A model generated the notes under the pieces. It saw only the letters and a list, made by a program, of their open reading frames with translations. It searched no databases and had not been told where the DNA came from. From Escherichia coli (GTDB taxonomy: Bacteria; Pseudomonadota; Gammaproteobacteria; Enterobacterales; Enterobacteriaceae), in assembly GCF_003334315.1 (NCBI RefSeq), contig NZ_QOWR01000010.1: a stretch of DNA of 64,000 bases, one strand, 5' to 3'. Shown here piece by piece: positions 26,735 through 28,882 of this stretch (its first letter is position 1; each line of letters opens with the position of its first letter). The position numbers were made by a program, and so were the translations under genes.

Positions 26735-28882
26735 ATGAAAAAAGTCGTCACGGTTTGCCCCTATTGCGCATCAGGTTGCAAAATCAACCTGGTCGTCGAT
26801 AACGGCAAAATCGTCCGGGCGGAGGCAGCGCAGGGGAAAACCAACCAGGGTACCCTGTGTCTGAAGGGTTATTATGGCTGGGACTTCATTAACGATACCC
26901 AGATCCTGACCCCGCGCCTGAAAACCCCCATGATCCGTCGCCAGCGTGGCGGCAAACTCGAACCTGTTTCCTGGGATGAGGCACTGAATTACGTTGCCGA
27001 GCGCCTGAGCGCCATCAAAGAGAAGTACGGTCCGGATGCCATCCAGACGACCGGCTCCTCGCGTGGTACGGGTAACGAAACCAACTATGTAATGCAAAAA
27101 TTTGCGCGCGCCGTTATTGGTACCAATAACGTTGACTGCTGCGCTCGTGTCTGACACGGCCCATCGGTTGCAGGTCTGCACCAATCGGTCGGTAATGGCG
27201 CAATGAGCAATGCTATTAACGAAATTGATAATACCGATTTAGTGTTCGTTTTCGGGTACAACCCGGCGGATTCCCACCCAATCGTAGCGAATCACGTAAT
27301 TAACGCTAAACGTAACGGGGCGAAAATTATCGTCTGCGATCCGCGCAAAATTGAAACCGCGCGCATTGCTGACATGCACATTGCACTGAAAAACGGCTCG
27401 AACATCGCGCTGTTGAATGCGATGGGCCATGTCATTATTGAAGAAAATTTGTACGACAAAGCATTCGTCGCTTCCCGTACAGAAGGCTTTGAAGAGTATC
27501 GTAAAATCGTTGAAGGCTACACGCCGGAGTCGGTTGAAGATATCACCGGCGTCAGCGCCAGTGAGATTCGTCAGGCGGCACGGATGTATGCCCAGGCGAA
27601 AAGCGCCGCCATCCTGTGGGGCATGGGTGTAACCCAGTTCTACCAGGGCGTGGAAACCGTGCGTTCTCTGACCAGCCTCGCGATGCTGACCGGTAACCTC
27701 GGTAAGCCACATGCGGGTGTTAACCCGGTTCGTGGTCAGAACAACGTACAGGGTGCCTGCGATATGGGCGCGCTGCCGGATACGTATCCGGGATACCAGT
27801 ACGTGAAAGATCCGGCTAACCGCGAGAAATTCGCCAAAGCCTGGGGCGTGGAAAGCCTGCCAGCGCATACCGGCTATCGCATCAGCGAGCTACCGCACCG
27901 CGCAGCGCATGGCGAAGTGCGTGCCGCGTACATTATGGGCGAAGATCCGCTGCAAACTGACGCGGAGCTGTCGGCAGTACGTAAAGCCTTTGAAGATCTG
28001 GAACTGGTTATCGTTCAGGACATCTTTATGACCAAAACCGCGTCGGCGGCGGATGTTATTTTACCGTCAACGTCGTGGGGCGAGCATGAAGGCGTGTTTA
28101 CTGCGGCTGACCGTGGCTTCCAGCGTTTCTTCAAGGCGGTTGAACCGAAATGGGATCTGAAAACGGACTGGCAAATCATCAGTGAAATCGCCACCCGTAT
28201 GGGTTATCCGATGCACTACAACAACACCCAGGAGATCTGGGATGAGTTGCGTCATCTGTGCCCGGATTTCTACGGTGCGACTTACGAGAAAATGGGCGAA
28301 CTGGGCTTCATTCAGTGGCCTTGCCGCGATACTTCAGATGCCGATCAGGGGACTTCTTATCTGTTTAAAGAGAAGTTTGATACCCCGAACGGTCTGGCGC
28401 AGTTCTTCACCTGCGACTGGGTAGCGCCAATCGACAAACTCACCGACGAGTACCCGATGGTACTGTCAACGGTGCGTGAAGTTGGTCACTACTCTTGCCG
28501 TTCGATGACCGGTAACTGTGCGGCACTGGCGGCGCTGGCTGATGAACCTGGCTACGCACAAATCAATACCGAAGACGCCAAACGTCTGGGTATTGAAGAT
28601 GAGGCATTGGTTTGGGTGCACTCGCGTAAAGGCAAAATTATCACCCGTGCGCAGGTCAGCGATCGTCCGAACAAAGGGGCGATTTACATGACCTACCAGT
28701 GGTGGATTGGTGCCTGTAACGAGCTGGTTACCGAAAACTTAAGCCCGATTACGAAAACGCCGGAATACAAATACTGCGCCGTGCGCGTCGAGCCGATCGC
28801 CGATCAGCGCGCCGCCGAGCAGTACGTGATTGACGAGTACAACAAGTTGAAAACTCGCCTGCGCGAAGCGGCACTGGCGTAA
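26735..28882 (+). CDS. fdhF: Formate dehydrogenase H, selenocysteine-containing molybdoenzyme (715 aa), with in-frame UGA at 27152-27154 recoded as Sec
   Basis: ORFs 26735..27154 and 27203..28882 are in the same frame and separated only by TGA. N-terminal 4Fe-4S motif CPYCASGC. The TGA is followed by the canonical SECIS hairpin. Confidence 0.95.
27152..27200 (+). other. SECIS element (SelB-binding mRNA hairpin) directing Sec insertion
   Basis: tgacacggcccatcggttgcaggtctgcaccaatcggtcggtaatggcg immediately 3' of the UGA. Confidence 0.9.

Follow-up and report, generated by a model that had tools for sequence, protein, structure and literature searches.

The stretch of DNA analysed here, 64,000 nt in length and hereafter called the window, is a segment of the E. 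coli chromosome that corresponds to the reverse complement of approximately 4.262-4.326 Mb of K-12. It shares 99.1-99.3% identity with K-12 MG1655 over positions 15101-63764 and 97.2% over positions 1-15100. The closest complete genomes, NZ_CP148277.1 and NZ_CP058725.1, reach 99.9-100% (the best complete-genome identity is 99.9% over 1-25000 and 100.0%, rounded, over 39001-64000), and none of the complete genomes compared is identical across the entire window. The window carries fdhF, the gene of formate dehydrogenase H (the subunit of formate hydrogenlyase that oxidises formate), with a single UGA inside its reading frame:

26735..28882, plus strand: fdhF coding sequence (formate dehydrogenase H, 715 aa, Sec140), a single frame from the ATG at 26735 to the stop codon at 28880-28882
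27152..27154, plus strand: in-frame UGA, codon 140, almost certainly decoded as selenocysteine (read directly from the sequence; aligned with the X, i.e. Sec, of FDH-H in the PDB)

The reading frame of fdhF and its product

In the list of open reading frames, the gene appears as two entries, 26735..27154 (plus strand, 139 aa) and 27203..28882 (plus strand, 559 aa). Since their starts lie 468 nt apart, the two share a frame, and the 48 nt that separate the TGA at 27152-27154 from the ATG at 27203 contain no stop in the frame of fdhF. Translated as a whole, 26735-28882 comprises 716 codons, with this TGA as the sole internal stop. An earlier note, made from the sequence, had described two same-frame ORFs parted by the TGA and had quoted the 46 nt that follow; its coordinates are exact, the quoted stretch being 27155-27200. 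It had also predicted that a naive gene caller would split the gene, as the ORF list indeed does, whereas RefSeq gives one fdhF CDS of 2148 nt, both in K-12 MG1655 and in a genome that is 100% identical to the window over 26600-29000. In both of these genomes, fdhF is flanked by mdtP upstream and yjcO downstream, and in some genomes RefSeq includes 'selenocysteine-containing' in the product name of fdhF.

The identification of the gene as fdhF, also put forward in the note, is fully supported at the protein level. Against the NCBIfam equivalog TIGR01591 (formate dehydrogenase subunit alpha; cut-off 666.25 bits), the read-through product reaches 1095.7 bits, covering profile positions 1-672 of 672, and it equals the E. 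coli FDH-H deposited in the PDB at 714 of 714 standard residues. The PDB chains in question (1AA6, 1FDI, 1FDO, 2IV2 and 7Z0T) are identical to it over residues 1-715 and carry a non-standard X at position 140. Among homologous formate dehydrogenases with solved structures, the position aligned with Sec140 is occupied by Cys in 7QV7_S, 7BKB_D and 9WXB_B and by X in 9T1S_L; an alternation between Sec and Cys is typical of true selenoproteins. Within the conserved ARV-[U/C]-H motif, FdhF thus carries UGA (Sec) at the metal-ligand position. The cysteines C8, C11, C15 and C42, which we take to be the ligands of the N-terminal 4Fe-4S cluster, are all present in the translation and all fall inside its 139-aa N-terminal part.

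The SECIS element downstream of the UGA codon

The UGA codon is embedded in an RNA element that matches a known selenocysteine insertion sequence over its full length:

27147..27201, plus strand: complete SECIS element, Rfam RF01988 (SECIS_2), 55 nt
27166..27182, plus strand: minimal SelB-binding upper stem-loop GGUUGCAGGUCUGCACC, nt 15-31 counted from the U of the UGA

In a search of the 64-kb window, the RF01988 model scored 87.1 bits (gathering score 70 bits; E = 1.8e-17) over model positions 1-55 of 55. The element has a lower helix, in which 27147-27151 are paired with 27197-27201, and a long interrupted helix spanning 27154-27193. The earlier note had placed the fdhF SECIS at 27152-27200; the element is indeed there, but its extent as defined by Rfam is larger, starting 5 nt before the UGA and ending at 27201. 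The SECIS_3 model (RF01989) reached 35.8 bits at the same element, and because this is below its gathering score of 63, the fdhF element is not of the SECIS_3 type.

The minimum-free-energy fold predicted for 27149-27200 coincides with the Rfam consensus structure. Its upper part, GGU.GCA[GGUC]UGCACC, consists of a stem with a four-base loop and one unpaired U, and thus the stem-loop with a GGUC apical loop and a bulged U that the note had anticipated is seen in the predicted fold. Partition-function calculations recovered the Rfam structure in 40-nt, 55-nt and 250-nt contexts. In the upper stem-loop, four stem pairs have a probability of at least 0.99 and the loop-closing A-U pair one of 0.81; the four upper-stem pairs keep a probability of at least 0.95 in the 250-nt context. 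The bulged U is split 0.50/0.50 between 27168, which is U17, and 27169, an equal split of the kind that a UU step usually produces.

The 17-nt upper stem-loop is separated from the UGA by 11 nt; its apical loop GGUC occupies 27173-27176, with G23 at 27174 and U24 at 27175, and begins 18 nt past the UGA. This geometry agrees with the minimal fdhF SECIS as described in PMC8659212, namely a 17-nt stem-loop located 11 nt from the UGA, with U17, G23 and U24. According to the same paper, U17 and G23 are contacts of SelB, and mutating either of them abolishes reading of the UGA (PMC8659212). The distance of 18 nt likewise falls inside the range of 16-37 nt from the UGA given for the apical loops of bacterial SECIS elements (PMC10778597).

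The RNA-folding check suggested by the note had a divided outcome, in that the hairpin takes the expected shape while its energy is not unusual for its composition. The predicted stability of -17.5 kcal/mol does not differ significantly from that of dinucleotide shuffles (z = -1.19), 26 of 200 of which fold as well or better, and folding energy is therefore not a discriminating criterion for the fdhF SECIS. The case is decided by the covariance-model match, conservation and the identity of the protein, not by energy.

Conservation within E. coli

Region 26600-29000 was found by megablast in 5420 of the 5426 complete E. coli genomes, and of 5421 E. coli records, 5406 show at least 99% identity over the 71 nt at 27140-27210, which contain the UGA and the SECIS. 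Relative to K-12, fdhF of the window carries 10 substitutions, none of them within 27147-27201, while over the 200 nt that precede the gene the two do not differ. That all 10 differences are synonymous implies purifying selection across the whole fdhF frame.

Conservation across genera

In a search of one genome from each species, a DNA pattern for C-A-R-V-UGA-H-G-P matched at least 120 loci, distributed over Enterobacterales, Pasteurellaceae, Shewanella and further groups. The genera and groups among the matches listed include Citrobacter, Enterobacter, Klebsiella, Serratia, Hafnia, Edwardsiella, Proteus, Providencia, Morganella, Pasteurellaceae and Shewanella. As the pattern demanded TGA, this orthologue set is silent on how often Cys stands at the position. 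The 120 matches listed yielded 48 distinct 55-nt sequences around the UGA, 46 of which were aligned without gaps together with the window, giving an alignment of 47 sequences. The two left out, L021 from Rhizobiaceae (30/55 positions identical) and L044 from Coriobacteriales (36/55), were omitted because their downstream 40 nt were too divergent for an ungapped alignment; they may represent other SECIS types, or else chance or paralogous matches.

On the Rfam structure, 89.6% of the cells in the alignment of 47 distinct sequences are paired, as opposed to 24-48% in slid registers, in which the 3′ partners were shifted by 1-3 columns. Columns 1, 3, 4, 6-10, 12, 13, 15 and 16 were fixed by the search pattern and are uninformative in this comparison, whereas those of the upper stem-loop were left free by the pattern and do carry information. 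There, all 47 distinct sequences agree in the apical loop and in the pairs that close it. Compensatory change is seen at pair 20-36, where G-C is replaced by U-A in 11 sequences and by C-G in one. Covariation is nevertheless thin because the SECIS is almost invariant: only 2 of its 20 pairs change on both sides in this alignment, and the covariation measure does not beat the shuffle control (381/500).

Synonymous sites provide a more telling view of the same element. For this comparison, at least 113 distinct sequences with at least 60% amino-acid identity were used without gaps, and the sites scored were those of invariant amino acids with 4-fold or greater codon degeneracy. Mean third-position entropy is 0.60 bits at the SECIS codons +1 to +16 versus 1.55 bits outside them (one-sided Mann-Whitney p = 0.0009), and it drops to exactly 0 at codons +6 to +8 (GCA GGU CUG), which make up the apical loop and its closing pairs. 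This low synonymous variation reflects selection on the RNA and not on the protein.

A variant form of the element, GGUUGCAGGUCUGCAGCG, occurs in Morganella, Proteus, Hafnia and Edwardsiella, and in its predicted fold the canonical bulged-U register is lost.

Selenocysteine machinery

The earlier note had named an absence of the sel genes from the genome as an observation that would refute recoding. Queried with K-12 selB-selA, selC and selD, the complete E. coli genomes contain selAB in 5426 of 5426 cases, selC in 5425 and selD in 5426, so that at the level of the species the machinery is present; by the same species-wide search, selAB and selD are also found in the nearest relatives of the window. 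Within the 64-kb window itself, a scan for tRNA genes found none, and synteny with K-12 (from yjdN and the phn operon to dusA) places no sel gene there.

Putative regulatory features flanking fdhF

Three further features flank the gene:

26668..26683, plus strand: sigma-54-type -24/-12-like element TGGCAT-N5-ATGCA, 52 nt upstream of the fdhF start codon
26575..26623, plus strand: repeat-rich region with direct and inverted repeats, candidate FhlA upstream activating sequence
28896..28917, plus strand: intrinsic-terminator-like hairpin with a T run, 14 nt past the fdhF stop codon, a consensus match only

The element at 26668-26683 deviates from TGGCAC-N5-TTGCW at two positions and retains the GG and the GC. 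In the whole window, such matches are no commoner than expected by chance (31 observed versus 42 expected), and as the scan is not significant, the promoter call is based on identity with K-12 and on the literature; following the K-12 literature, we take this site to be the sigma-54 promoter of fdhF. The repeat-rich region further upstream contains the direct repeat TTTCGTCA, starting at 26575 and again at 26607, and the inverted repeat TCAAAACT/AGTTTTGA at 26585-26592 and 26616-26623. Transcription of fdhF is controlled by FhlA, which is activated by formate (PMC11841067), and the reference list of that paper describes FhlA as sigma-54-dependent. Given this dependence on FhlA and their place approximately 50-100 nt upstream of the sigma-54-like site, we infer that the repeats at 26575-26623 are a candidate FhlA site. 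On the other side of the gene, the terminator-like hairpin has 8 pairs, 5 of which are G-C, and the tail TTTTTTTATCC. The -24/-12-like element, the repeats and the terminator-like hairpin are all consistent with the picture of fdhF drawn here; singly, they are not statistically compelling.

Discussion

The evidence assembled above leaves us nearly certain that UGA140 of fdhF is recoded to selenocysteine by means of the downstream SECIS, and none of the analyses made gave a result that contradicts this reading. On established knowledge, carried over here to the window, the mRNA directly 3′ of the UGA would form the SECIS hairpin, and SelB, a specialised elongation factor loaded with GTP and Sec-tRNA(Sec), would bind the bulged U and the GGUC loop at the apex of this hairpin by its C-terminal domain. 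The tRNA would be the product of selC, charged with serine and converted by SelA using selenophosphate supplied by SelD. The tethered complex would bring Sec-tRNA(Sec) to the UGA in the A site, in competition with release factor 2, after which the ribosome would melt the hairpin and translate it as residues 141-156, and Sec140 would become a ligand of the molybdenum centre. For K-12, whose sequence is identical, both SelB binding and a read-through dependent on SelB and selenium are reported in the literature. The efficiency of recoding in vivo is put at 30-40% in PMC4513850; at such an efficiency, some ribosomes would stop at the UGA, and the 139-aa peptide would be made as well.

The splitting of the gene in the ORF list, the second part of which has its own ATG at 27203, might suggest that the TGA is a nonsense mutation or a sequencing error, and hence that fdhF is a pseudogene, or that 26735-27154 and 27203-28882 are two genes. 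However, the same TGA with the flanking 71 nt is found in 5420 of the 5426 complete E. coli genomes, and a TGA is present at the at least 120 loci of other genera. Moreover, the crystallised protein bridges the junction with Sec at position 140, the synonymous sites past the TGA show the constraint of an RNA structure, and the exclusively synonymous differences from K-12 extend purifying selection over the full frame. We regard these readings as having practically no chance of being correct: the conserved TGA, the conserved synonymous sites downstream and the full-length crystallised protein together rule out a pseudogene, a sequencing error and two separate genes alike. A somewhat different proposal accepts that the UGA is read but assigns the reading to a near-cognate tRNA (tRNA-Trp or tRNA-Cys) acting without SelB, with the hairpin serving as a generic stimulator or pause site. 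Stop-codon read-through stimulated by a 3′ structure does exist in other systems, the stability of the hairpin is unremarkable, and the amino acid inserted in this strain is not shown directly by computation. Nevertheless, the hairpin fits a SECIS model specific for SelB, in the bulged U and the invariant GGUC loop as well, and a generic stimulator would not freeze the nucleotides of the loop across genera; the identical protein in the PDB has a non-standard residue at 140, and the Sec machinery is universal in E. coli. The loss of UGA reading upon mutation of U17 or G23, as reported in PMC8659212, argues against this proposal, too, and we consider it exceedingly improbable.

It may also be asked whether termination is the main outcome at the UGA, the 139-aa fragment being functional in itself and the full-length selenoprotein a minor product. 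The fragment includes the 4Fe-4S cysteine motif (C8, C11, C15 and C42), and with recoding at 30-40% and RF2 competing at the UGA, a truncated peptide must arise (PMC4513850). Yet a separate function of this peptide is without support, the 575 codons downstream, which encode the bulk of the catalytic enzyme, are under purifying selection, and homologues of the Cys type have no stop at the aligned position, so that we see next to no likelihood in this alternative. Selenocysteine recoding leaves room for two more speculative additions, both of which we hold to be very unlikely: the UGA and SECIS might also act as a selenium-sensing switch with a functional 139-aa 4Fe-4S product, and, separately, the GGUUGCAGGUCUGCAGCG variants might reflect a co-evolved, altered recognition by SelB. 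Neither the switch idea nor that of an altered SelB concerns anything unusual in the window itself.

The recoding of UGA140 by the SECIS is by no means a new phenomenon. Among the bacterial examples of UGA recoding, the fdhF gene is the founding, textbook one, and its SECIS is the standard one in selenoprotein engineering. Both the UGA and the SECIS of fdhF are already known and correctly annotated in RefSeq, and an intact fdhF SECIS in one more E. coli chromosome adds nothing new to this. The locus is of use as an annotation check, since a pipeline blind to selenocysteine would return ORFs of 139 aa and 559 aa, or a pseudogene, where the correct result is one selenoprotein of 715 aa.

Comparison with known systems

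The closest known system is fdhF of K-12 (b4079), which has the same protein, the same 200 nt upstream and the same neighbours, mdtP and yjcO. The SECIS of the window is identical at 55 of 55 positions to the sequence that the RF01988 consensus reproduces. The strain is nevertheless not K-12, as the gene differs by its 10 synonymous substitutions and the window is approximately 97-99% identical to MG1655. The SECIS elements of fdnG and fdoG are similar in that the UGA lies within an ARV-U-HGP motif and is followed by a SelB-binding hairpin inside the frame; however, these genes are absent from the window, and its element is not of the RF01989 type, which we take to be the SECIS of E. coli fdnG and fdoG. 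Formate dehydrogenases of the Cys type (7QV7 chain S, 7BKB chain D and 9WXB chain B) share the fold and the active-site motif with FdhF and are homologous to it over the full length, but they need no recoding signal because they have Cys where FdhF has Sec. In eukaryotes and archaea, UGA is also converted to a selenocysteine codon by an mRNA structure together with an elongation factor of its own. There, however, the SECIS is located in the 3′ UTR, far from the UGA, and eukaryotes use SBP2 and EFSec, whereas bacterial SelB binds a hairpin that directly follows the UGA (PMC10778597).

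SECIS variants and paired fdhF-like loci

Among the listed loci whose DNA matches the pattern for C-A-R-V-UGA-H-G-P (one genome per species), L027, L049, L031 and L035, from the genera Morganella, Proteus, Hafnia and Edwardsiella, carry a variant of the SECIS hairpin, GGUUGCAGGUCUGCAGCG, in which the 3′ side of the upper stem reads AGC instead of ACC and the GGUC apical loop is retained. Because of this substitution, the canonical pair G21–C35 is lost. The folds predicted for the hairpins of L027 and L049 additionally show a register shift and are without the bulged U. The variant could reflect co-variation with SelB in these four genera.

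Among the matches listed, several species, including Pluralibacter gergoviae, Cedecea neteri and two Silvania species, carry two separate C-A-R-V-UGA-H-G-P loci with an fdhF-type SECIS. Such species seem, judging from these matches, to have two fdhF-like selenoprotein paralogues. The paired loci, each pair from the same species, are:

L022 and L023
L055 and L056
L067 and L068
L072 and L073
L078 and L079

fdhF and selC within E. coli

In the collection of 5426 complete E. coli genomes, the fdhF region is without a match in six and selC, the tRNA(Sec) gene, in one; four of the fdhF-region matches lie on plasmid-labelled records. In the window, the list of open reading frames also contains a frame opposite the 5′ part of fdhF, which covers the UGA/SECIS region and for which a shadow ORF of GC-rich coding sequence is the likeliest reading:

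26771–27184, minus strand, 137-codon ORF antisense to fdhF

Repeats, a small RNA and phnE compared with K-12

The Rfam search of the window returned naRNA4 (RF02564) at three sites, all of them REP/BIME-type repeats, and a full-length match to RF01408 (153 bits); an open phnE frame lies near the window start:

44–320, plus strand, REP/BIME-type array at the window start, three copies at 100-nt spacing
2816–3658, plus strand, phnE, a single open frame of 280 codons
29670–29853, minus strand, REP/BIME-type array, two copies between yjcO and gltP
40388–40459, minus strand, REP/BIME-type repeat, one copy
47698–47838, plus strand, small RNA SraL/RyjA

Since the K-12 MG1655 region aligns at several offsets approximately 100–113 nt apart, the repeat copy number at 44–320 and 29670–29853 appears to differ from that of K-12. 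Separately, in the phnD/phnE gap (at approximately 2804) the window lacks 16 nt relative to K-12, within a REP-like sequence that in K-12 contains GGATAAGACGCCCCGGCGTCG.

SraL/RyjA corresponds to K-12 ryjA, annotated there on the strand opposite soxR and overlapping that gene's final bases. In K-12 MG1655, phnE is interrupted by an 8-bp duplication (GCTGGCGT) and annotated as a pseudogene, whereas in the window the duplication is absent (site 3285–3300); as the frame is open over all 280 codons, this strain probably has an intact permease for the phosphonate transporter.
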